A model generated the notes under the pieces. The model was not told where the DNA came from. It worked only from the letters and a program-made list of their open reading frames with translations, and did no database searches. 64,000 nucleotides of DNA from Terriglobia bacterium (GTDB taxonomy: Bacteria; Acidobacteriota; Terriglobia; Acidiferrales; UBA7541): positions 16,500-80,499 of the forward strand of contig JBGQHF010000002.1 in NCBI GenBank assembly GCA_041497835.1, in the 5' to 3' direction. Position numbers and translations under genes: made by a program. How positions within the stretch are numbered: the stretch's first letter is position 1; each line of letters starts with the position of its first letter. Below, piece after piece: positions 11,809 to 24,875 of this stretch.

Positions 11809-12428
11809 TTTTTGTCCTTGTTGGGAGTGCGATGGTGGGTGGGATACCCCCACCCCGGTTGTTTTCGCGAAAGAGGCGGCAAGTGATTGGAAAGACGGGA
11901 GTTGAGCTTTTGCAGGCGCGCAAAGAGGCGGCAAATCAAAGAGGGGAAAGGAGATAAGGGAGGTTGAGGGGGTGCGGGAAGGGAAGGAAGGGCCGCTGGG
12001 GCGGGGCTGAAGGGGCTGGAGCCGCGAGTTCACAACGGATGATAGCATGGATGTAGAATATGTTCAAGTCCATTCTTGAGTACTTGTATTTAGCGATGGG
12101 GCACAGAATTCGAGCGGGTTCGGGGTAAGGGCAAGAAAAGAAGAAAGTAGAGTTTACCGGGAGCGGGCGTGACGCAGTCCCTTACACATGGGAAAGCCCA
12201 AAGCCGATCTCCCGCTAAGTTCACGTCTTGGATAGGAAATTCAAAAGCGCCACGTTTTAACTTCGTCAAAACATGGGGCAGGCGCAAGCAAGGAGGAGAA
12301 GTGGTCCAGCCGGGCCGTAAAGGCGTCGTATGATATTAGGCGTGGAATAGGGGGTGAAGAACAATGGGGCATCCAGACCTTTGTCAATCATGAGCCCTGT
12401 GCCCCCCGGGCTTCGGAGGAAACAACCG

Positions 12429-13298
12429 ATGGGCGACTCGGATTCGATAATCAATCTTGGCGAACTGTCGAAGCCCGCAACTGTACTTGTCGAAAAAATT
12501 GCCGACGCGATTGGTGGCATCGCCAAACCCTGGCAAATAAAGCGAGTCGCCCATGCTGAAGCAGAAGGCGACAAGATTCGCGCAGTTGCGGAAATTGAGA
12601 TAACAGCGCTCACGCGACGGGCCGCTCGCCGATTTCTGATGGAGGAAGCCAAGAAGCAGCAGAACATGGAATCCATCATAAGCAAGGCCCTGCCGGAAGT
12701 CGGGGAGCAGGCTAAGGCCGAAGAGGTCGAGGAAGATTGGATCGCAAGTTTTTTCGACAAGTGTCGGTTAATCTCCGATGAACAGATGCAGCGTTTGTGG
12801 GCCAAGATTCTTGCCGGAGAAGCCAACTCGCCGGGTCGGTTCTCTAAGCGGACGGTTGCTATGCTCGCGAGCCTAGATAAATCCGATGCGGCAATGTTCT
12901 CTAAACTGTGCCGGTTCAAATGTCTGGTCACTCAGCTAGTCCCGATCATTTTTGATTACACCCACCCAATCTATTCAGAGTGTGGAATAAATTTTGAGCT
13001 TCTTTGCGATCTCGAAAGTATCGGCTTGATCCATCTCGACACAACTCGTACGCATGTAGTTGACGACCTGGCCCAGAAAATAGCCGTAGATTACTTCGGC
13101 CAGAAGATTTCTGTGGAGTTTGCCAAAGCAGAAAACAATGAGCTAGCAGTTGGGAGCGTCCTCTTCACGCAAGCAGGTTCACAACTTGCCACAATCTGTG
13201 AGGCGCAGCCACGGGACGGCTTTATCGAATTTTTGAAAGAAGCATGGAGAAATTGCGGAACTCCCACATCGGTCCATTTCGGCCCCCCGCAGTTCTGA
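12429..13298 (+). CDS. DUF2806-like protein
   Basis: KPWQIKRVAHAEAE, EEAKKQQNMESII, VEEDWIASFFDKCRLISDEQMQRLWAKILAGE; lower GC than the host genes. Confidence 0.75.
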   Translation: MGDSDSIINLGELSKPATVLVEKIADAIGGIAKPWQIKRVAHAEAEGDKIRAVAEIEITALTRRAARRFLMEEAKKQQNMESIISKALPEVGEQAKAEEVEEDWIASFFDKCRLISDEQMQRLWAKILAGEANSPGRFSKRTVAMLASLDKSDAAMFSKLCRFKCLVTQLVPIIFDYTHPIYSECGINFELLCDLESIGLIHLDTTRTHVVDDLAQKIAVDYFGQKISVEFAKAENNELAVGSVLFTQAGSQLATICEAQPRDGFIEFLKEAWRNCGTPTSVHFGPPQF

Positions 13299-13608
13299 GC
13301 AACTCTGCAACTTTCCATATAGAGGAGTAGCTATCGCAGAGTTAGGGGCAGGTAGCGCAGCATTTCGGTGGATTTCTGGCTTGTGCAAAACAGCGCGATG
13401 GCATCACTTTTCGAAAGTCACGCCTGGGTGATACAGAGGCAGAGTTCTGGGTGGCCTACGTCTTGCTGAAAGCCGCCCAGGATCTTCTTGGCCACTCAAG
13501 TCTTGGCCAACCGCCCGGTGACCTTAGAATGGTCCAATTGTCCGCGCAAAGCACGCCATATAAGTAGTTTAGGGTACAAAACAGGGGTGGGCCTCTCGGA
13601 GGTTCAAC

Positions 13609-14256
13609 TCACGAACTTGTTGCGGCTCTGGCATGACTGACCGTCGGTTCTTCGACAAAATCCCCAAACTCTAGCTGTTGACCGTTCCCCTTGCTGTGAG
13701 CGTGGCCTATCGTGATGCCCTTTAGGTTCTCGATGTTCACGACGGCCCCGTAAGGCATGAACACCTTTGAGAAACGGTCGAACTCTCTCCCCCAATAAAC
13801 CATAGCGCATGACATGGGAGCGCCTTTACCCGTGTCCTTCCCGTTTTCGAGGAAGCGAAGACGCGTGTCGTACAAAAAGCAAACCGCCGTTGCTCTGCCA
13901 TAGATGTATTTCTTCCAGTGGCCTGTGTTCGTGGCCACGGGAACTAGAGCGATGACTTCCGCGTCGTGCACTCTGTGAGCTTCTTCGCATTTCCTCAACC
14001 AATCCTTGATGGTTTTCGCGTGTTGGCGGTCGATTCCATATGGTGGATTGACGTAGACGGTGCGAAAATTCCACGATTCTCGAAGGCCGTCCTTCTTCGG
14101 TAGCGCGTACTCGACGCGAGCATGGACTATGGAATAGCTGTTTGAGCAAGGGTCGAGGTCGATGGTTCCGCCGAAACAGTCTCTCACGGCATCGACGTAC
14201 TTCTTTGGAGTGCCCCAGTCCTTGTTATCGGCGATGATTTTTCGTCCCGCAGTCAT
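13609..14256 (-). CDS. Small DNA N6-adenine methyltransferase (phage Dam-like family)
   Basis: DWGTP, IDLDPCS, VYVNPPYG, IALVP, VCFL..RLRF; ATGA overlap with the upstream gene. Confidence 0.8.
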   Translation of the reverse strand: MTAGRKIIADNKDWGTPKKYVDAVRDCFGGTIDLDPCSNSYSIVHARVEYALPKKDGLRESWNFRTVYVNPPYGIDRQHAKTIKDWLRKCEEAHRVHDAEVIALVPVATNTGHWKKYIYGRATAVCFLYDTRLRFLENGKDTGKGAPMSCAMVYWGREFDRFSKVFMPYGAVVNIENLKGITIGHAHSKGNGQQLEFGDFVEEPTVSHARAATSS

Positions 14257-15395
14257 AGCGAATGTACCCTTCTCCAATTCTTTTCGCGCAATTGCGAGAG
14301 CGCTGTCTCTAGCGCCTTTATTGTACCCCTCGGGGGTCCGATGATATTAAACCACTTCTCGATACGCGCCGCGTTGTCCTTGAAATATTTTTGTAGGACC
14401 TGGTCGGCTCGATAATCTATCTGAACCTTGGTGAACTGGTTCTTCGTTTTCTCACCCGTATAGCTGGCAAGGAATGCGTTCCGTGCAGGCTTAAGCACCG
14501 GAGCAGGCTCAAGCAGCAACTCTGTGATGAATTCTGATAGTCCTGGGTCCGTGAGAAAGAGGAGCCAGTCGTACGATTGAGCGAGCACCTTAAGTTCCTT
14601 GTTGTGGTTCTCCGACGTAAACCAATTCCCGTGATTGCTGACCACGCCGACAGTAAGGATGAAATCGTGCAGGAGTTCGGCATCGTTCGAAGCGATTATT
14701 TCAGCCAACAATTCTGCGTAGGGCTTGGAGTAAATCGTCTGGTCTGCCTTGTATACGAGTCCCCGTAGTTCGCCAGATGCGGTGCGGAGTTTGTGCATCG
14801 AAGAGAGGGACTTTGCGACGTAAGCGCCCTGCTTTGCCTTCTCAATCGTCTGGGGGCCTTTCTTCATGCCTTCCTCTACGCCGACCCTCTTGCACTCGAA
14901 GATCGCATACGGCCTGCGGTATTGTTCGACAATCTGTATCTTCTCCCTGTTGCCCTGAATCGAGTCCAGGGTCGCCACAAGGTGCGAACTCTTGCCGTTA
15001 GCAACCAGGCATGAATTTCTTAGAACGCCCCCGCTAGTAAGCAAGACCCTGTCGGACTTCGTGAAGCCTGCCAACGAAAAGGTTTTCTCGTTGATGTTCT
15101 CCAGAATGCGAGTGGCATTTATTGGCAACTTGTGCGGAAAAACGAGCCGTTGTTGCCGAAGGATGGGATGCAGAGAATATTCAACGTTGTGCGTGATGTC
15201 TGGATTTCCGTACTCAGCTAAGGCGCGCTCAATCGCCATCGAATGTTCGAAGCCCCAGGACTTCAGCATATAGAAGGTAATGATTTCGACGAGAGTGCCG
15301 AGTGCGCGGCCCGCTGCCTTTTTGGAGTCTTTAGCGTAGTGAAAAACTTTTTCTACTAAGACCTTTTGTAGTTGGTCGACTGATGCGTATGCCAT
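14253..15395 (-). CDS. Putative type II restriction endonuclease
   Basis: 380 aa, lower GC, E-x-K motif (FECKRVG), translationally coupled to the methyltransferase. Confidence 0.6.
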   Translation of the reverse strand: MAYASVDQLQKVLVEKVFHYAKDSKKAAGRALGTLVEIITFYMLKSWGFEHSMAIERALAEYGNPDITHNVEYSLHPILRQQRLVFPHKLPINATRILENINEKTFSLAGFTKSDRVLLTSGGVLRNSCLVANGKSSHLVATLDSIQGNREKIQIVEQYRRPYAIFECKRVGVEEGMKKGPQTIEKAKQGAYVAKSLSSMHKLRTASGELRGLVYKADQTIYSKPYAELLAEIIASNDAELLHDFILTVGVVSNHGNWFTSENHNKELKVLAQSYDWLLFLTDPGLSEFITELLLEPAPVLKPARNAFLASYTGEKTKNQFTKVQIDYRADQVLQKYFKDNAARIEKWFNIIGPPRGTIKALETALSQLREKNWRRVHSL

Positions 15396-15501
15396 TTTCG
15401 GCAAAAAGTGTAACACGCCACACAGTGCTCGCCCTACCGGTTGCGGGTGTGGCGGGGGCCACAGCATTGCACAGCGCGCACGGACGGGGCGCCCGGTGGT
15501 A

Positions 15502-20361: not shown

Positions 20362-20377
20362 TTGAGAATCTGATTCC
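20362..20377 (+). repeat. attL core
   Basis: TTGAGAATCTGATTCC, identical to 24847-24862 (18/19 match if extended by 3 nt). Confidence 0.88.
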
Positions 20378-20438
20378 TCCGTCTAAAACCCCGCCCAAAC
20401 AAAGGCCCGAAGCAACACGGTGTCCAACAGGTGTCCAG

Positions 20439-20759
20439 ATGCTCAAAAGATACGGTAAGTGGATGGCCGACTGGCGGGACCAACACGGCAAGCGCCACAG
20501 GAAAGCCTGCCGCTCGAAGACCGCCGCCGCGCAACTCGGTGCGAAGATGCGCCGATGCGAAGCAGCAAAAAAAGACCAGCCCTCGGGGACATCGGCCAAA
20601 TCCTCACGACGTGGGCGCAAGGCTGGCCGCCGAACACCGCGAACCGCCAAGTCGCGCTCGAACTCACCGCGGAAATCGGCCACCTACAACCGCGCCAACT
20701 CAGCAGCTTCATCGCAGAAGCCTTCTTCGCAAAATGGCGAACACGCTACTCGCCCATGA
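20439..20759 (+). CDS. Integrase arm-domain-like ORF (zero frame); possible N-terminus of a frameshifted integrase
   Basis: MLKRYGKWMADWRDQHGKRHRKACRSKTAAAQ resembles arm-type DNA-binding domains; the A7 run at 20567-20573 joins it to the catalytic frame by a -1 shift. Confidence 0.65.
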   Translation: MLKRYGKWMADWRDQHGKRHRKACRSKTAAAQLGAKMRRCEAAKKDQPSGTSAKSSRRGRKAGRRTPRTAKSRSNSPRKSATYNRANSAASSQKPSSQNGEHATRP

Positions 20760-21403
20760 CGCTCTACACACGCCGAGCCATCTACCAACGACTTCTCGGT
20801 GTCCTCACGCAGTACGGCGCACCGCCCATCAAACTCAGCAAGGTCAGAAAACCAGAACCACGCGGCGTCACCGCAACGCAGGAAGAAATCCAGAAACTTC
20901 TAGGCGCAGCGACGCCGGCACTCCGACTCTTCATCATCCTCTGTTGGCAGCTCGCCCTCCGAAGAAGCGAAGCCCTGGCCGTCACACCGCTGTCCTACGA
21001 CGACAAAACCCATACAGTCTGCATCCGGACCAAAGGCGGAAAGATGCGACGCATCCCGCTCACCAGCGACGCGGAAGAAATGATCCGCGTCGCCAGCAAA
21101 TCCGCAGCAGACCCCTCCGAAAGCTGCGTCTCCATCCTCAACGGAAGGCCGATGAAGCGCATGGACAAACGCTGGTGGCAGCTAACGAAGAAATGCAACC
21201 TCACTCACATCCACCCCCACGACCTCCGCAGAACCACCGCGACGAATCTCTACCGCACGACCCACGACATCCGGGCCGTGCAGCAGTACCTCGGACACAC
21301 ACAACTGGTGTCCACAACCCACTACCTCGCGCCACTCTCCGAGGAGCAGCTGCGCGGGATGCACCAACTCCTCAACTTCCACGGAAAGGGAGCGCCCAAC
21401 TGA
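20555..21403 (+). CDS. Tyrosine recombinase/integrase, core-binding and catalytic portion
   Basis: LALRRSE (R), RTKGGK (K), HPHDLRR (HxxR), LGH...STTHY (H, Y); all catalytic residues present. Confidence 0.92.
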   Translation: MRSSKKRPALGDIGQILTTWAQGWPPNTANRQVALELTAEIGHLQPRQLSSFIAEAFFAKWRTRYSPMTLYTRRAIYQRLLGVLTQYGAPPIKLSKVRKPEPRGVTATQEEIQKLLGAATPALRLFIILCWQLALRRSEALAVTPLSYDDKTHTVCIRTKGGKMRRIPLTSDAEEMIRVASKSAADPSESCVSILNGRPMKRMDKRWWQLTKKCNLTHIHPHDLRRTTATNLYRTTHDIRAVQQYLGHTQLVSTTHYLAPLSEEQLRGMHQLLNFHGKGAPN

Positions 21404-21585
21404 TGGACACCAACAAACACATGACGGACCCGGAAGCCTTCATCGCACTCGGCGACCTACTGCTAGACAACTTCGACCCACAGGACACCATGCACGGCAT
21501 CCTCAGCGACAAAAGGGTGGACGCCATCCTGACCGCGCAGCGTGCCCTCGTGGAACGCATCGCGCGCAACACCCCCATAGGCTAG
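21403..21585 (+). CDS. Element hypothetical protein (60 aa)
   Basis: TGATG overlap with the integrase stop; MDTNKHMTDPEAFIALGDLLLDNFD. Confidence 0.65.
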   Translation: MDTNKHMTDPEAFIALGDLLLDNFDPQDTMHGILSDKRVDAILTAQRALVERIARNTPIG

Positions 21586-21593
21586 AGGACACC

Positions 21594-21782
21594 ATGACGA
21601 ACGTCGCAGACCAAAGATGGATAGTCCGCATCACCTGCGGACCATGGGCCATCCGCGAACTCGTCAACGCCCCGGACCAGCGCATCGCCGCAAACCGCGC
21701 TCTGCAACTCTTCAACCACAAATTCGACCCGGACACCGCGATGACCATCACGGTGTCCCTCCAGCAGGAGCCGCACACATGA
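21594..21782 (+). CDS. Element hypothetical protein (62 aa)
   Basis: RBS-like AGAGGACACC directly before the ATG. Confidence 0.7.
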   Translation: MTNVADQRWIVRITCGPWAIRELVNAPDQRIAANRALQLFNHKFDPDTAMTITVSLQQEPHT

Positions 21783-21937
21783 TTGCCGTCTACTACGTCA
21801 AGCTCCGCAAACCAACACCACCAGCGCGGCCGCACGACAACTGCGCCTGCCGCCACGTCCGGCTACACCACGGGCCGAAACGCGGCCCCTGCACCATCAC
21901 GAACTGCCCCTGTCCGCACTTCAAGAGGACACCATGA
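21779..21937 (+). CDS. Element Cys/His-rich micro-protein (52 aa), putative zinc finger
   Basis: ATGA overlap; CACRHVRLHHGPKRGPCTITNCPCPHF. Confidence 0.65.
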   Translation: MIAVYYVKLRKPTPPARPHDNCACRHVRLHHGPKRGPCTITNCPCPHFKRTP

Positions 21938-22152
21938 GCCGCCGCACCTACCGCTGCGTAATCGAGTGGAACCACCGAAAGTGGGGTCCACAAATGCAGA
22001 AGAGCGTGGCGGAAGGTACCTCGATCCGCCGCGCCATCAACAACGCACTCCTGGCCTTCTTCTCGGACACCAGCCAGCGAGAGCATCGCCGCGACGCCCA
22101 CGCCCACATCGAAATCAAGGCGTGGCGCGTCAAGAAAGAAGCCGCGAAGTGA
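21934..22152 (+). CDS. Element hypothetical protein (72 aa)
   Basis: AGAGGACACC before the ATG; ATGA overlap. Confidence 0.7.
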   Translation: MSRRTYRCVIEWNHRKWGPQMQKSVAEGTSIRRAINNALLAFFSDTSQREHRRDAHAHIEIKAWRVKKEAAK

Positions 22153-22373
22153 CGCCACTCGACGCGCTAGAAATCGCAGCCACCGTCCTGATCGCACTCT
22201 GGTGCGGTCAGACCATCGTGCACATCACCCGAACCGCCATCCGAGAGGACACCGCGACGAAACTCCAGCAAGAGGCAGAGCACGGCGCAACCAAACGCCA
22301 CGTCCGCGACGCCCACGGTCAAGGACACCAAGAAGTCAAACCACCAACACCCAAAGAAAGGAGGACCCCTTGA
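22149..22373 (+). CDS. Element single-TM protein (74 aa)
   Basis: GTGA overlap; LEIAATVLIALWCGQTIVHI hydrophobic segment. Confidence 0.6.
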   Translation: MTPLDALEIAATVLIALWCGQTIVHITRTAIREDTATKLQQEAEHGATKRHVRDAHGQGHQEVKPPTPKERRTP

Positions 22374-22531
22374 ACGAATACACAGTGACCATCAGCGACG
22401 GAATCCTCTCCATCCCGCAAACCGTCACAGCCGAAACCCACAAGGCCGCCGCCCTCGAAGCCCTGACCCATCTCGACGAATCGAAGCTCGACCCAGCGGC
22501 CGACCTCATCATCAACGTCACCACTCCCTGA
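22370..22531 (+). CDS. Element hypothetical protein (53 aa)
   Basis: TTGA overlap, AGGAGG upstream; MNEYTVTISDGILSIPQTVTAE. Confidence 0.6.
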   Translation: MNEYTVTISDGILSIPQTVTAETHKAAALEALTHLDESKLDPAADLIINVTTP

Positions 22532-23598
22532 GCGACCGCAGCGGCGTGCAGGGCTGAGAAGCGCCAGCACGCCGCCGCTCGTCTCACGGAGCCGCAGCGG
22601 CATCGGCGTGCCATCGGCGCATCGCCACGGGCCGCAAGAGGAGCGAGCATGCGGCCCGCGCTCGCGCTGGAAGAAGCACGCCTCACGCCGCTGCTGGTCC
22701 TCGGCCCTCGACCAGCGGTGTCCATCGCCGGACAAATCTCAGAGTTGCGCAGCTGTAAAAAGTGGATGCCTGCGCGCGGCACGCGTTCGGCCGCAAATCG
22801 CTTCGCTGCGTCCTCCGCCGTCGGACAGCCGCGCGAGAATCCCGCGCGGTTCTCGACCTTCACTAGTGCGGTTGCGGCGTCGCAGCATGTCGGTCGCCGC
22901 GCAAAAACAAAAGCGCGCGTCGCCCGCCCTGCGCGCCGCCGCGTCTTCCGGCACGCTCCGCCCCACGCCGTACCGCTCTCCGCACGGCGTGGGGCCCGCG
23001 TCGCGGCGGTCCTCGGCATTCGGCGCGCCCGCATCATCGAAGAACGTTATGAAGGATGCGGGCAAACGCGCCGAAAGCCTGTGGGCCGCGCCCGCGCAGA
23101 ACCAGCGCGGTCGCCGGTTCGTGTCCGTGCCGGAACGGGCCGCGCGGCAGCACCCGCAAAAGAGGGCGGGTGTCATGGCCGCGCGGCCCCGCGCCCCGTG
23201 CATCTCCCCTCGTCCGCAGATCGCCGCTCGTCTGTGCGGGCCACCATAGCGGGCGCGGCCTTCTGCCGCGCCCTGGTGTCCCGCAGCTCGCGGCGTTTTT
23301 TGTTGCGGCGGCTGTCCCGCCGCCGTTCGCGTCTCTATCCGTCCTCGTGTTCGGTCAGGGTCTCCACGGGGCGCGGTCCGTTCCGGCCCGGCCAACGGAT
23401 TATTGAAGAGAAAGAAACACCATCGCCCCGCGCGCCGCAGATCGAGCGATGCGGCGCGCGATGTTGCAGCCTGGGCGACCGCGATCGCGGCTCCTGGCTG
23501 GCGGGGAGCCGCGTTCGCGCTACAATCCCCCACAGCAACAGCCAACCGCTCACTGATCGGAGAGCAACCGCCCGCCACACCACGGCGGGCGGCTCCCC
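22532..23598. other. About 1.06 kb hairpin-dense, probably non-coding region inside the element
   Basis: At least 13 perfect 6-11 bp stems, e.g. 22961-22971/22984-22994, 23138-23148/23178-23188, 23429-23439/23450-23460, 23568-23576/23584-23592. Confidence 0.7.
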
Positions 23599-23919
23599 AT
23601 GACGCCCGCAGAACGCCAGCGCCGCTATCGACAGAGGCACCAAGACGAAGAGAAAAACCGTCGAGCCTCACCCCACCACAAGGAAACTCTGGCGCGCTGC
23701 AAAGCCCGCCGCGACCCCAACCGCGATCGCGAGCACAAACAAGAGCTCTACTTCCGCTTCCACGGCCACCACCACTCCGGATGCAACGCTCTGCAACTCA
23801 AAACGCCGCGCCTGTCATGGCTGGACACCGCAGGCCGCATCCACCACGACGACCTCCGCTCGGCCGAAGAAGTGATCGCCGAGCACGAAGAGAAGGAAAA
23901 AAGGGAGTCCTCACAATGA
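23599..23919 (+). CDS. Element hypothetical protein (106 aa)
   Basis: Basic helical N-terminus MTPAERQRRYRQRH; element-type codon bias. Confidence 0.7.
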   Translation: MTPAERQRRYRQRHQDEEKNRRASPHHKETLARCKARRDPNRDREHKQELYFRFHGHHHSGCNALQLKTPRLSWLDTAGRIHHDDLRSAEEVIAEHEEKEKRESSQ

Positions 23920-24224
23920 GCAAGCTGACGCCAAAAGACGCACGCAATCTCCTCGACGTTTACTTCCAGAAGGACACCAACAGCGAGACAGTCGCCGAAG
24001 CAGACCGCGACGCAAAAATCTGGCTGCGAGCGCAGACCGCAATCGTGAAAGGACACCACGCCCGCGAGCTCGCCGAAATCCACTTCGCCGACCTGTCCGG
24101 CAAAGCCACACCTACACAGCTCGAGCTACGCAACCAACTGATGAAAACAATCTGGCTGCAGGCCGAGAGCGAACAACTCGCCAGTGAGGAGGCCGCCGCC
24201 CATGCCGAAACCCACGAAACTTGA
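23916..24224 (+). CDS. Element hypothetical protein (102 aa)
   Basis: ATGA overlap with GGAG upstream; MSKLTPKDARNLLDVYFQKD. Confidence 0.7.
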   Translation: MSKLTPKDARNLLDVYFQKDTNSETVAEADRDAKIWLRAQTAIVKGHHARELAEIHFADLSGKATPTQLELRNQLMKTIWLQAESEQLASEEAAAHAETHET

Positions 24225-24417
24225 GGAGCGCCTGCAGCTGCTCGACGCCGAGCGACTCGTGCTCACCGTAGAGCTCCGCTGCGAGCTCATGCGCCAGGCG
24301 AAGAAACTCCTGCCCGCCGCGATCGCGCAGGCGCGCGCGAAGAAGGGAAGCCCCGCGCTGCTCCGAATCATCACCCGCCTGGCCATGAGGCCCGCCAACA
24401 TCGAGAGAAGGCACTGA
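24202..24417 (+). CDS. Element hypothetical helical protein (71 aa)
   Basis: GAGGAGG upstream; MPKPTKLEERLQLLDAERL. Confidence 0.65.
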   Translation: MPKPTKLEERLQLLDAERLVLTVELRCELMRQAKKLLPAAIAQARAKKGSPALLRIITRLAMRPANIERRH

Positions 24418-24846
24418 GAGCGCCGAGCGCGAAGCGCGACCGCGCCCTCAGCTCAACCAAATCCGAAAAACCGTGGGACCTCACACCCACGACCCAAAAT
24501 CGAGCGCCGCCGCTGACGTCGTGGAAGTCAACTCACTTCACTTCCAAACAACACCGCGCCTCGGGCGGCCCGGCCAGATCGGCTAGCTGTCCGGGCCGCT
24601 GCTACTCGGCGCAGATCCCCAGCTCGACCCTAAACGACCGATAATCGCCCAAAGCGCCGACCGACAAACACGCTGTCACGCACAAACCACCACCCCACCA
24701 CCCTGCCGGTCCCCGACCCGCCCCGACGGACACCAAACCCGCCAAGTGTCCAACAAACCGCTGGACACCGCAGCGAAAAGAGCGTAGACCGATAGCACAG
24801 ATGGACACCGCAGCCTATCGGACCGCAAGAGGCAGGGGCAATAGAT

Positions 24847-24862
24847 TTGAGAATCTGATTCC
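24847..24862 (+). repeat. attR core
   Basis: TTGAGAATCTGATTCC, identical to 20362-20377. Confidence 0.88.
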
Positions 24863-24875
24863 CCCCGCGTAGAAT
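24847..24875 (+). promoter_or_regulatory. Sigma70-type promoter for ferredoxin, overlapping attR
   Basis: TTGAGA (24847-24852), 17 nt, TAGAAT (24870-24875). Confidence 0.55.

Follow-up and report, generated by a model that had tools for sequence, protein, structure and literature searches.

A hairpin-dense non-coding block recurs in an undescribed family of tiny mobile elements in Terriglobia

Background

Why should a mobile element of about 4.5 kb give over more than a kilobase of its length to DNA that encodes no protein and is packed with hairpins? The block that raises this question occupies positions 22532..23598 of a 64,000-nucleotide stretch of the genome of a Terriglobia bacterium, a soil/sediment acidobacterium (the whole of that stretch is hereafter ‘the window’). 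An earlier note, made by reading the letters alone, had offered two answers: a new large non-coding RNA (ncRNA) of the GOLLD or ROOL kind, or a cis-acting single-stranded DNA (ssDNA) signal, such as an origin, packaging site or promoter array, used with the aid of a helper. Here, we describe the element and its relatives, and weigh the roles that the block might play at the level of protein, RNA, double-stranded DNA and ssDNA.

The element and its gene content

The block lies within an island of 4,504 bp (20362-24865) that is bounded by 19-nt repeats identical at 18 of 19 positions. These repeats, attL (20362..20380) and attR (24847..24865), stand 4,485 bp apart and read TTGAGAATCTGATTCC[T/C]CC, with TTGAGAATCTGATTCC as their exact 16-nt core; in the closest relative, L008, a 22-nt repeat (TTGAGAAACCGATTCCCACCGC) is found at both ends. 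The right-hand copy overlaps a promoter-like site (TTGAGA-N17-TAGAAT) facing a host ferredoxin gene. Between the repeats, and all on one strand, are a tyrosine integrase and small open reading frames (ORFs) only. The integrase (20555..21403, plus strand; 282 aa as called, with a longer reading from 20459) matches PF00589 (E = 1e-24) and a PHROG integrase, and its 45 homologue clusters reside mostly on short contigs, many of them 3-6 kb long. It is followed by a chain of small overlapping plus-strand ORFs (60, 62, 52, 72, 74 and 53 aa; 21403..22531) whose codon periodicity is strong and whose coding strand is rich in A+C; the same genes are called in identical contigs. The 72-aa product (21934-22152, plus strand) is the hallmark of the family, with 52 homologue clusters, and its AF2 model (pLDDT 92) weakly matches the fold of the rRNA-binding protein eL20/LX. 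Beyond the block, gene calls delimit a right-hand plus-strand operon (23599..24417) of 106, 102 and 71 aa, in which the 71-aa ORF is highly conserved across the family and the 106-aa protein, which adjoins the block, returned no homologue in a word-indexed protein search. Searches found no tRNA in the 64-kb window, and no replication, relaxase or capsid families in the island or in four relatives, the latter inspected by eye.

The island is an integrative element with a tyrosine recombinase, its excision junction being seen in relatives only. Ten relatives are flanked by repeats of 16-24 nt, and the family excises, because two contigs, L025 and L029, contain attP-type junctions of elements related to the island. 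The island itself is integrated in two metagenomes, since its read depth equals that of its flanks (19x and 16x), and the assembled contigs of the DNA runs contain no excision junction of this copy. A low-depth variant, about 86% identical, occurs in run X3. No RNA runs holding island sequence were found.

The composition of the island is strongly strand-asymmetric. At four-fold sites its frequencies are A 0.19, C 0.54, G 0.23 and T 0.04, against A 0.065, C 0.44, G 0.41 and T 0.085 in the host, and the asymmetry spans the whole island, non-coding arms included; to our knowledge, this bias is among the strongest for an integrated bacterial element. The non-coding arm next to attR (24418..24846), for example, has A 0.27, T 0.10, C 0.39 and G 0.24, and carries three copies of GGACACC. 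This heptamer and its complement, GGTGTCC, are 20-fold enriched in the elements and are found within several stems.

A dense array of stem-loops

At least 13 stem-loops are crowded into the block, which is 1.07 kb long, 71% GC and free of skew. The 13 stem pairs that the earlier note had listed are all perfectly complementary, two of them reaching 12 bp, and the loss of the A/C skew that it reported is real, with A 0.144, T 0.143, C 0.38 and G 0.33 in the block against A 0.27-0.28 and T 0.10 in the other non-coding arms of the island. Perfect hairpins with loops of 3-30 nt were counted in the block and in 300 dinucleotide-preserving shuffles. Stems of at least 7 bp numbered 16 (5.9 +/- 2.6 in shuffles), those of at least 9 bp numbered 9 (0.67 +/- 0.87) and those of at least 11 bp numbered 3 (0.05), and no shuffle matched any of these counts; at a threshold of 10 bp, where 3 were again observed, a single shuffle in 300 did as well. 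The entire window has 22 stems of at least 9 bp, and 9 of them fall within the block. Folding energies, compared with dinucleotide shuffles as the earlier note had advised, agree: over 1,000 nt the minimum free energy is -563 kcal/mol on the plus strand (shuffles -507 +/- 9.7; z = -5.8) and -578 on the minus strand (-521 +/- 8.8; z = -6.5), none of 20 shuffles folds as well on either strand, and z in 200-nt windows runs from -3.4 to -6.3 within the block and mostly from +0.7 to -3 outside it.

Several members of the array are distinctive. A nested hairpin at 23137..23189 has a 12-bp outer stem, an inner 7-bp stem and the loop AAAAGAGG; its position is kept in relatives L013 and L019, with stem and loop changed. 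Pyrimidine-rich islands (CATCTCCCCTCGTCCGCAGATCGCC ... GCTCGCGGCGTTTTTTGTTGCGGC) at 23184..23307, where the AT skew reverses locally to about -0.5, are conserved with the same two relatives. On the plus strand at 23480..23526, an inverted repeat (CGCGATCGCGGCTCC-N10-GGAGCCGCGTTCGCG; the palindrome itself spans 23480-23519) is followed by TACAAT and, by analogy with relatives that have no block, may be an operator and -10 box for the downstream operon; a scan with consensus promoters made no call there, and at the equivalent place in L196 and L170, which have no block, there is a palindrome with TTGTGG-N17-CACAAT. Finally, a plus-strand hairpin at 23560..23598 (GGAGAG-CAA-CCGCCCGCC-loop-GGCGGGCGG-CTCCCC) abuts the ATG at 23599 and is likely a 5'-UTR element masking the ribosome-binding site, equivalent hairpins lying directly 5' of the homologous gene in L196, L170, L090 and L013.

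A repeat finder placed the hairpins of the block in no repeat family, nearly all being unique in sequence, and neither it nor TRF found a CRISPR or tandem array in the block, whose sole tandem row is 2.9 copies of an 8-nt unit (score 30; 23177-23198). An array of intrinsic terminators is not supported: the island has 7 terminator-like sites where 7.3 are expected, with none on the plus strand of the block and two weak ones on its minus strand. The idea of a CsrA sponge, which calls for GGA in loops, was dropped once the loops had been read, only two to three hairpins having GGA there.

The block does not encode a protein

Gene finders call a 317-aa plus-strand ORF across most of the block (22649..23602), and some features favour it: the frame is open, it fits the chain of overlapping genes, it is preceded by a ribosome-binding site (AGAGGAG), and its stop overlaps the start of the next gene in ATGA. 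Nevertheless, we consider it very improbable that the block encodes this Arg/Ala-rich protein. GC content is flat across codon positions (0.71/0.69/0.72, with 13% T at third positions), against about 0.6/0.45/0.75 and 1-6% in the real genes next to it; there are no Pfam or PHROG matches; tblastx of the block against relatives detects no protein-level conservation in any frame; and the gaps in the L013 alignment have lengths not divisible by three. It is overlapped by three further long ORFs, which is what a GC content of 71% would lead one to expect, and relatives attract similar spurious calls over their own blocks. The ORF is judged spurious because it lacks both codon periodicity and protein conservation, and the frames crossing the block, which the earlier note had described as Arg/Ala low-complexity, are by-products of its composition; the conserved coding signature that would have spoken against its non-coding reading was looked for and is absent. 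A 66-aa ORF suggested by weak periodicity at 22920-23190 was also rejected, being unconserved and having an alignment to L013 with indels not divisible by three.

A recurrent and fast-changing feature of the family

With the integrase alone as query, neither genomes nor viral contigs yielded close relatives, and a profile search was required to recover them. IMG/VR contained distant integrases only and no relatives of the element, and INPHARED phages and PLSDB plasmids contained neither relatives of the element nor of the 72-aa protein, all PLSDB integrase matches being below 30% identity. The Terriglobia relatives of 4.2-5.5 kb mostly carry a counterpart of the block, likewise GC-rich and dense in hairpins, whose sequence bears almost no similarity to the one in the window. 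Stems of at least 9 bp exceed all 100 shuffles in 9 of 14 relatives and perfect stems reach 25 bp, while the blocks vary from 0.6 to 1.8 kb in length and also in position. Alignment with the blocks of L013 and L019 yields short collinear islands only, and BLAST of the window hairpins against family blocks gives chance-level matches except for these islands and the R1 hairpin described below. The hairpin block recurs but changes fast within this undescribed family of tiny mobile elements. Six elements have hairpins with a stem of 12-14 bp and a loop of 28-30 nt, an apparently common geometry whose copies are not positionally homologous.

Some relatives of ~3 kb have a 200-nt spacer in place of the block, which is absent from L196, L197 and L170, and for this reason the block is not essential for integration or excision. 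At the left end of that spacer the block-less relatives carry a clean intrinsic terminator on the minus strand (GGGGGCC-loop-GGCCCCC-T8). The contigs L187-L189 were considered as circular permutations and rejected, being integrated (host flank is present in L190) and without terminal overlap; L193 has the look of a circular permutation, also without terminal overlap.

Stems that change on both sides

One hairpin type, R1, can be followed through the family. It consists of GCATGtC, a variable stem, an A-rich loop and GcCATGC, and is present in 10 elements. The window copy (22885..22943; GCATGtC, variable stem, loop AAAAACAAAA, GcC(c)TGC GC) scores 72.8 bits against a covariance model, by which it is modelled on the plus strand, its fold being more stable on the minus strand; the nested hairpin at 23137..23189 is a weak R1-like match (13.7 bits, E = 0.077). 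All 13 significant matches have the same orientation relative to the genes, and the search, which covered 311 kb, placed none in the host DNA flanking the loci.

In an alignment of 13 copies from the 10 elements, which was fitted to the covariance model and is to be read with that caveat, 90.6% of cells are paired (68% when shuffled; 26-48% in slid controls), 12 of 15 pairs have changed on both sides, and compensatory cells number 40 against 12.4 +/- 2.7, a value that none of 500 shuffles reaches. L012 and L027 share a common 29-nt loop on a stem that differs at 8 of 13 positions, every difference being compensated. The covariation that the earlier note had called for is therefore found in R1, in the stems of L012 and L027, and in L013 at hairpin 23137-89, and these comparisons support the view that stem pairing in the block is under selection.

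Mismatches may bear on which strand folds. In R1 there are 2 G.T and 8 A.C pairs (the latter G.T on the minus strand), with no one-sided changes. Family blocks contain 22 single-mismatch helices, against 1.6 expected per shuffle, and in 12 of these the mismatch is C.T (G.A on the minus strand; 3.4 expected). With DNA parameters the minus strand is the more stable in 13 of 13 R1 copies, by a mean of -3.8 kcal/mol, and with RNA parameters in 10 of 13. Mismatch types, fold energies and the extreme A+C strand bias of the island all indicate that it is the minus strand that folds, with the proviso that the A.C and C.T excesses are small counts that could stem from the mutation bias skewing the island instead of from tolerance for G.T and G.A on that strand.

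Resemblance to known systems

Among the closest parallels are the Ff phage intergenic region and the single-strand initiation sites of plasmids (sso, ssi/Frpo), which are likewise orientation-specific, non-coding clusters of stem-loops in small mobile replicons, with conserved bases and loops on variable, compensated stems, and which act only while one strand is single-stranded, as we propose here. The block differs in being 1.07 kb rather than about 0.15-0.5 kb and in being GC-rich, with short perfect stems in place of one long imperfect hairpin; it has neither sigma-70-like hexamers nor a CS-6 motif. The island also lacks a Rep or relaxase, and the strand that would be exposed is the template strand of its genes, the opposite of the arrangement in Ff phages.

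Large structured RNAs (GOLLD, ROOL, HEARO/omega RNA and OLE) resemble the block in size range, are likewise predicted to be strongly structured and also lie in integrated mobile elements, but the block has no covariance-model match, no conserved architecture or sequence core, variable length and position (to the point of absence in some members) and almost no G.U pairs on the gene strand. REP, BIME and REPIN sequences are also clusters of GC-rich palindromes in non-coding DNA, and R1 recalls them as a repeated hairpin with conserved ends; in contrast, nearly all hairpins of the block are unique, R1 is confined to the islands and not found in host flanks, and the island has no RAYT/TnpA gene. 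In integron attC sites a tyrosine recombinase is again associated with imperfect hairpins, whose conserved mismatches could confer strand selectivity, yet the block has no R''/R' core sites (neither GTTRRRY nor RYYYAAC...GTTRRRY on either strand) and no cassettes between hairpins, and the att cores on which the integrase acts, 16-24 nt long, flank the island as a whole.

Among satellites, PICMI and VEIME (PMC9618062 for VEIME) are similar in being ~5 kb long with an integrase, few small genes and no structural genes. They have no sequence relationship to the island, for which encapsidation is not indicated. We know of no hairpin block or extreme strand bias described in them. Anelloviruses offer an analogy only: these small replicons have an A/C-rich coding strand, with the complementary strand being the single-stranded one, and a long untranslated region whose GC-rich hairpins are thought to act in replication, features reminiscent of the island; they are, however, viruses of eukaryotes, lack an integrase and encode a Rep-like ORF1.

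What the block may do

The reading that we favour, with a probability of a little under 0.4, is that the block is a cis-acting array of stem-loops used during an ssDNA stage of a helper-dependent element. In this view it is the enlarged intergenic region of an integrative element of ~4.5 kb, which excises and seems to rely on a helper. It is a mosaic of independently folding GC-rich stem-loops rather than one RNA of fixed architecture, with R1 as a sequence-defined, orientation-specific hairpin type common to the family. The stem-loops would act in cis when the minus strand, complementary to the strand that carries the genes, is present as single-stranded DNA, as the excised circle is replicated, transferred or packaged with the aid of a helper, and may serve as entry or recognition sites for a recruited factor, for example in complementary-strand initiation or as targets of a hairpin-binding protein. 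The last ~120 nt of the block would double as the operator/promoter and 5'-UTR hairpin of the downstream operon. C and A deaminate while a strand is single-stranded, and the strand bias of the island is in the direction that deamination of minus-strand C and A in ssDNA would be expected to produce. That the block acts in cis with a helper is plausible because the island has no recognisable replication, transfer or capsid gene. The lack of any known sso, ssi or Frpo signature in the block counts against the ssDNA model: TAGCGW (CS-6), the mark of an ssoA-type origin, is absent from both strands of 22401-23700, and a scan restricted to sigma-70-type consensus found no promoter-like site of the Frpo type on either strand of the block. 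The flank-level read depth in two metagenomes, the absence of relatives from IMG/VR, INPHARED and PLSDB, and the existence of block-less relatives weigh on the same side.

A role at the level of RNA is possible but doubtful. The block could be a long minus-strand (antisense) ncRNA, or the structured, untranslated spacer of a plus-strand polycistronic transcript. Its stem-loops would then lend stability or insulation to the two operons, cover ribosome-binding sites or be bound by a protein of the element. It probably is transcribed, because the operons on either side run in the same direction and no plus-strand terminator precedes it, and hairpins that would mask a ribosome-binding site abut the next gene both in the window and in the four relatives named above. 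The canonical minus-strand terminator carried by block-less relatives implies a minus-strand RNA, which would fit the strand evidence equally well; on that strand R1 is ~90% Watson-Crick with 4% G.U and some G.A pairs, as in an ordinary RNA helix. The modelled fold of the 72-aa protein, weakly matching an rRNA-binding protein, would also suit this reading. Set against it are the results of cmscan, with no Rfam match in the whole 64-kb window at gathering thresholds and, at E<=1 over 18-28 kb, only a chance snoRNA match outside the block; this and the want of a common architecture among relatives speak against the single large ncRNA of the GOLLD/ROOL type first envisaged. Consensus promoters are likewise missing from both strands of the block, both its length and its position vary, functional RNAs seldom have perfect stems of 19-25 bp, and an RNA role alone would leave the extreme strand bias of the whole island unexplained.

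It is unlikely that the block is filler, its hairpins generated by intra-strand template switching (quasipalindrome correction) or by selfish palindromic insertion, although its dispensability in some relatives, its mosaic make-up and the fast turnover of its length, position and sequence are what filler would show, and perfect stems with double changes and no one-sided intermediates are as templated correction would leave them. Against this, the base sequence and mismatch of R1 are conserved across 10 diverged elements, with an A-rich loop and one orientation throughout, the 29-nt loop is kept between L012 and L027, and the block withstands the strong mutation bias evident in the skew of the island's other non-coding arms. 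That the palindromes act in double-stranded DNA, as binding sites of dimeric proteins or cruciform-prone sites for regulation, partition or packaging recognition and possibly in connection with the dispersed GGTGTCC, is quite unlikely. The stems are almost purely Watson-Crick, the palindrome at 23480-23519 stands where relatives have an operator-like one, and the enriched heptamer recurs inside stems; but each of the 13 palindromes has its own sequence, too varied a set for a few proteins to read. Furthermore, the conserved half-sites of R1 lie 30-50 bp apart around a spacer that is variable yet self-complementary, a covariation that makes sense only if the stem extrudes, and its conserved, orientation-specific T.C mismatch favours a strand-specific folded form.

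Returning to the ssDNA stage that we favour, a bolder extension of it, which we regard as rather unlikely, is that the islands are the integrated form of unrecognised acidobacterial replicons or satellites existing much of the time as negative-sense ssDNA circles, with the block as their origin or recognition region. R1 could then be a hairpin recognised by a protein or polymerase, and GGTGTCC a second cis signal, for instance in priming or packaging.

Implications

Terriglobia rank among the most abundant bacteria of soils, and almost nothing is known of the mobile elements they carry. The islands described here form a family of undescribed, very small integrative elements with three signatures: a hairpin-dense core in which pairing is maintained, an extreme bias in strand composition and a 20-fold enriched heptamer. 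They also expose a systematic annotation error, as databases list ‘proteins’ of 260-320 aa that run across such blocks. If the ssDNA reading is true, these islands would represent a new way for minimal elements to move and a natural system in which to study hairpin-based recognition; if instead the block acts as RNA, it would be a new, fast-evolving structured RNA module.

A non-coding array of stem-loops

The block, a GC-rich stretch at 22532-23598 inside the integrase-bearing island of the window, is a non-coding array of stem-loops maintained by selection, at once modular, fast-evolving and specific in its orientation. The stem pairs that the earlier note had listed are all perfectly complementary where it placed them (two extend to 12 bp), and its expectation of folding beyond chance is borne out, with z = -5.8 on the plus strand and -6.5 on the minus strand over 1,000 nt of the block; in 200-nt windows, three parts of the block have z between -3.4 and -6.3, against values mostly from +0.7 to -3 outside it. 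When perfect stems with loops of 3-30 nt were counted over 22532-23598 and in 300 dinucleotide-preserving shuffles, the block held 16 of at least 7 bp (5.9 ± 2.6 in shuffles), nine of at least 9 bp (0.67 ± 0.87) and three of at least 11 bp (0.05), counts that none of the shuffles reached; at a threshold of 10 bp, one shuffle in 300 reached the observed count. The entire 64-kb window has 22 stems of 9 bp or more, and nine of them fall here. The compositional skew of the neighbouring genes is lost, as had been claimed, with A at 0.144, T at 0.143, C at 0.38 and G at 0.33; the remainder of the island, non-coding arms included, has about 0.27 A and 0.10 T. Unpaired positions of the block keep an excess of C over G (0.335 vs 0.14), a measure biased because G has two possible pairing partners. 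At the left edge (22541-22611), the arm GCACGCCG(C) at 22567-75 can pair either upstream with GCGGCGTGC (22541-49) or downstream with CGGCGTGC (22604-11), in mutually exclusive hairpins.

Gene callers set a 317-aa ORF on the block (22649-23602), with AGAGGAG as its ribosome-binding site and overlapping the following gene by ATGA. GC at its three codon positions is flat (0.71/0.69/0.72, T3 13%), against about 0.6/0.45/0.75 and a T3 of 1-6% in all real genes of the island; codon periodicity is absent over the block in every frame of both strands, tblastx against relatives finds no conserved frame, and indels relative to the related locus L013 have lengths not divisible by three. All this marks the block as non-coding, as first proposed, and the ORF as an artefact of high GC, so that a protein-coding role is essentially excluded. 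Public gene calls place 'proteins' of 260-320 aa across hairpin blocks (window 22649-23602, L187:4060-4845 and L195:4274-5068), the artefactual ORFs of the relatives L195 and L187 measuring 264 and 261 aa; such calls will pollute protein databases.

Selection on pairing

Covariation among homologues, proposed earlier as a check on the structure, is present in three settings. A 29-nt loop, CAAACCRTARGGCGCTRAAAACCGCGCAT, is common to L012 and L027, while the 13-bp stems that close it differ at eight positions, all eight compensated. The hairpin at 23137-23189 is retained in L013/L019 between conserved flanks with stem and loop both different, the stem there including a compensated insertion. The family-wide hairpin type R1 (window copy 22885-22943, 72.8 bits) consists of GCATGtC, a variable 9-12-bp stem, an A-rich loop (e.g. 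AAAAACAAAA) and GcCATGC, followed by GC; the hairpin at 23137-89 is weakly related to it. A six-copy seed gave a covariance model that, with copies accepted at E<0.02, found 13 copies in 10 elements among the 311 kb searched, seven of them outside the seed, some elements having two or three; all 13 lie on the gene strand, and none was found in the host flanks of those 311 kb. Across the 13 copies, 90.6% of cells are paired (68.2 ± 2.2 in shuffles), 12 of 15 pairs show changes on both sides and 40 cells are compensatory (12.4 ± 2.7), values reached by none of 500 shuffles and somewhat inflated by the fitting of the alignment to the model, yet the stem sequences plainly differ. A slid-partner control left 26-48% paired.

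The island and its family

The island (20362-24865; 4,504 bp) is bounded by 19-nt repeats, TTGAGAATCTGATTCC[T/C]CC, which are identical at 18 of 19 positions with an exact core of 16 nt, and is inserted between the redoxin and ferredoxin genes of a Terriglobia-like host; its relatives fall in MAGs of Candidatus Acidoferrum and Terriglobia. Its genes, all on the plus strand and mostly joined by ATGA-type overlaps, are a tyrosine integrase (PF00589) and about ten ORFs of 52-106 aa; for these small ORFs there were no Pfam or PHROG matches. The family hallmark is a 72-aa protein (21934-22152, +), represented by 52 clusters, all unannotated. Its AF2 model is confident (pLDDT 92) and comprises two strands, two helices and one strand; the rRNA-binding ribosomal protein eL20/LX accounts for its best matches, none of them strong (E about 0.1, TM 0.6-0.68), and the protein may bind nucleic acid. 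Identical island copies occur in seven sediment-metagenome contigs and one MAG, with island depth equal to flank depth in two runs. A close variant co-occurs in the sediment run X3, where low-depth contigs are 83-90% identical to island parts 20396-20621, 22583-22783 and 23575-23750. The att core overlaps promoter-like sites, TTGAGA-N17-TAGAAT at the right repeat copy (overlap at 24847-24875, +) and a mirror site at the left (20368-20340, -), so that the host's divergent redoxin and ferredoxin genes may keep their promoters after integration. About 5 kb from the island lies a low-GC (0.52) region at 12000-15500, possibly another mobile or prophage remnant, with a DUF2806 protein (12354-13298) and a phage-type Dam N6-adenine methyltransferase (13609-14277, PF05869).

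A profile of 27 integrases yielded about 40 related loci, and exact-protein look-ups yielded more; ten relatives have their own flanking direct repeats of 16-24 nt and measure 4.2-5.5 kb. All share the A+C-rich gene strand, and the conserved genes are the integrase, the 72-aa protein, the C-terminal part of a 106-aa protein and a 71-aa protein. Replication, relaxase or capsid genes were not recognisable among the ORFs of four relatives, read by eye and thus weak evidence. That the family excises is directly evident from two metagenome contigs (L025:3070-3140 and L029:990-1060) in which one att core links the right end of an element with its left end, as in an excised circle or tandem (attP-type junctions); the elements concerned resemble L018 (92-96% identity) and L090 (79%), respectively. 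The elements are recombination mosaics. Between L018:6943-10051 and L025, segments alternate between 100% and 64-90% identity; between L013 and L019, genes are 74-82% identical and exactly the 730-nt non-coding block (L013:2705-3434, L019:2812-3542) is 97% identical.

Most relatives (L008, L012, L013, L019, L027, L090, L091, L187, L011, L014, L193 and L195) contain a non-periodic, GC-rich, skew-poor region of 0.6-1.8 kb, mostly central in the element and adjoining the right repeat in L018. Perfect stems of at least 9 bp exceed all 100 shuffles in nine of the 14 relatives tested, the longest reaching 19-25 bp, and primary sequence is hardly conserved, with only short collinear islands (22572-22723 and 23184-23307) aligning to L013/L019. 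In three compact relatives of about 3 kb (L196, 5009-7972; L197; L170), a spacer of just 200 nt stands in its stead; the block is thus an expanded regulatory spacer, dispensable for the core life cycle. The short spacer carries an operator-like palindrome, CACCACAAGTAATTGTGGTG, a promoter-like TTGTGG-N17-CACAAT and a covarying 5'-UTR hairpin just ahead of the next gene's ribosome-binding site. Its left end forms a canonical terminator for the minus strand, a hairpin with T8 after it, and the combination suggests a small antisense RNA.

The heptamer GGTGTCC/GGACACC is the most enriched 7-mer of 11 pooled elements, L008, L014, L019, L090, L092 and L187 among them (140 copies in 52 kb vs 14 in 111 kb of flanks); 21 of its 26 window copies lie inside the island (20419-24809), with 5.9 expected for the whole window. 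It occurs in both orientations, often directly before start codons (AGAGGACACCATG), as an 11-bp-spaced pair beside the left repeat, three times in the right arm, and within several hairpin stems opposite a mismatch.

Strand of folding and strand bias

Perfect stems are symmetric, so the mismatches carry the information on strand. The family's blocks contain 22 helices with a single internal mismatch, where 1.6 are expected per shuffle, and these include 12 C.T (3.4 expected), four A.C, one G.T and one A.G; R1 pairs show two G.T, eight A.C and no one-sided changes, and a T.C mismatch at the R1 base is conserved in about 10 of 13 copies. Seen from the minus strand, A.C and C.T become G.T and G.A, the best tolerated mismatches, A.C and C.T on the plus strand being among the worst. 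The minus-strand fold of R1 is the more stable in 13 of 13 copies with DNA parameters (mean -3.8 kcal/mol) and in 10 of 13 with RNA parameters. The block thus probably folds on the minus strand, with the caveat that the mutation bias inferred for the plus strand (G>A, T>C) would alone create A.C; C.T is not so explained.

Four-fold sites of the island genes have A 0.19, C 0.54, G 0.23 and T 0.04, and those of six host genes A 0.065, C 0.44, G 0.41 and T 0.085. The non-coding arms at both repeats show the same A+C excess, which spans the whole island (20400-24860) and so is not a codon effect. On the gene strand the bias runs from G to A and from T to C, contrary to what usually accompanies transcription. 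By established chemistry, single-stranded DNA deaminates at C and A, and this direction would be expected from such deamination on the complementary strand if that strand were often single-stranded.

What the block may do

Our preferred reading, tentatively held (probability about 0.38), is that the block acts in cis during a putative single-stranded minus-strand DNA stage, in which its stem-loops would be recognition or initiation sites used with a putative helper. This would account jointly for the strand bias, the spectrum of mismatches, a covariation confined to Watson-Crick pairs and the lack of autonomous functions in an excising island without recognisable replication or transfer genes. 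Action at the RNA level, somewhat less probable, is still a strong rival: transcription almost certainly runs through the spacer, the terminal hairpins cover ribosome-binding sites, and the minus-strand terminator of the block-less relatives suggests an antisense RNA. A functionless accumulation of palindromes is unlikely, and an array of duplex-DNA binding sites a little more so, both explaining fewer of the observations.

In its logic the block is akin to the Ff intergenic region and to sso/ssi/Frpo elements, the latter raised in the earlier note, but of their signatures the two tested, sigma-70-type hexamers and CS-6, are absent; the large ncRNA also raised there found no matching Rfam family. 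An attC array, a REP-like element, a terminator array and a tandem array were each tested and rejected. The nearest analogues of the whole element are minimal integrase-only satellites such as PICMI and VEIME, with no sequence relationship. We rate the block as belonging with the structured cis-acting non-coding regions of small mobile elements, in an element family that appears to be undescribed.
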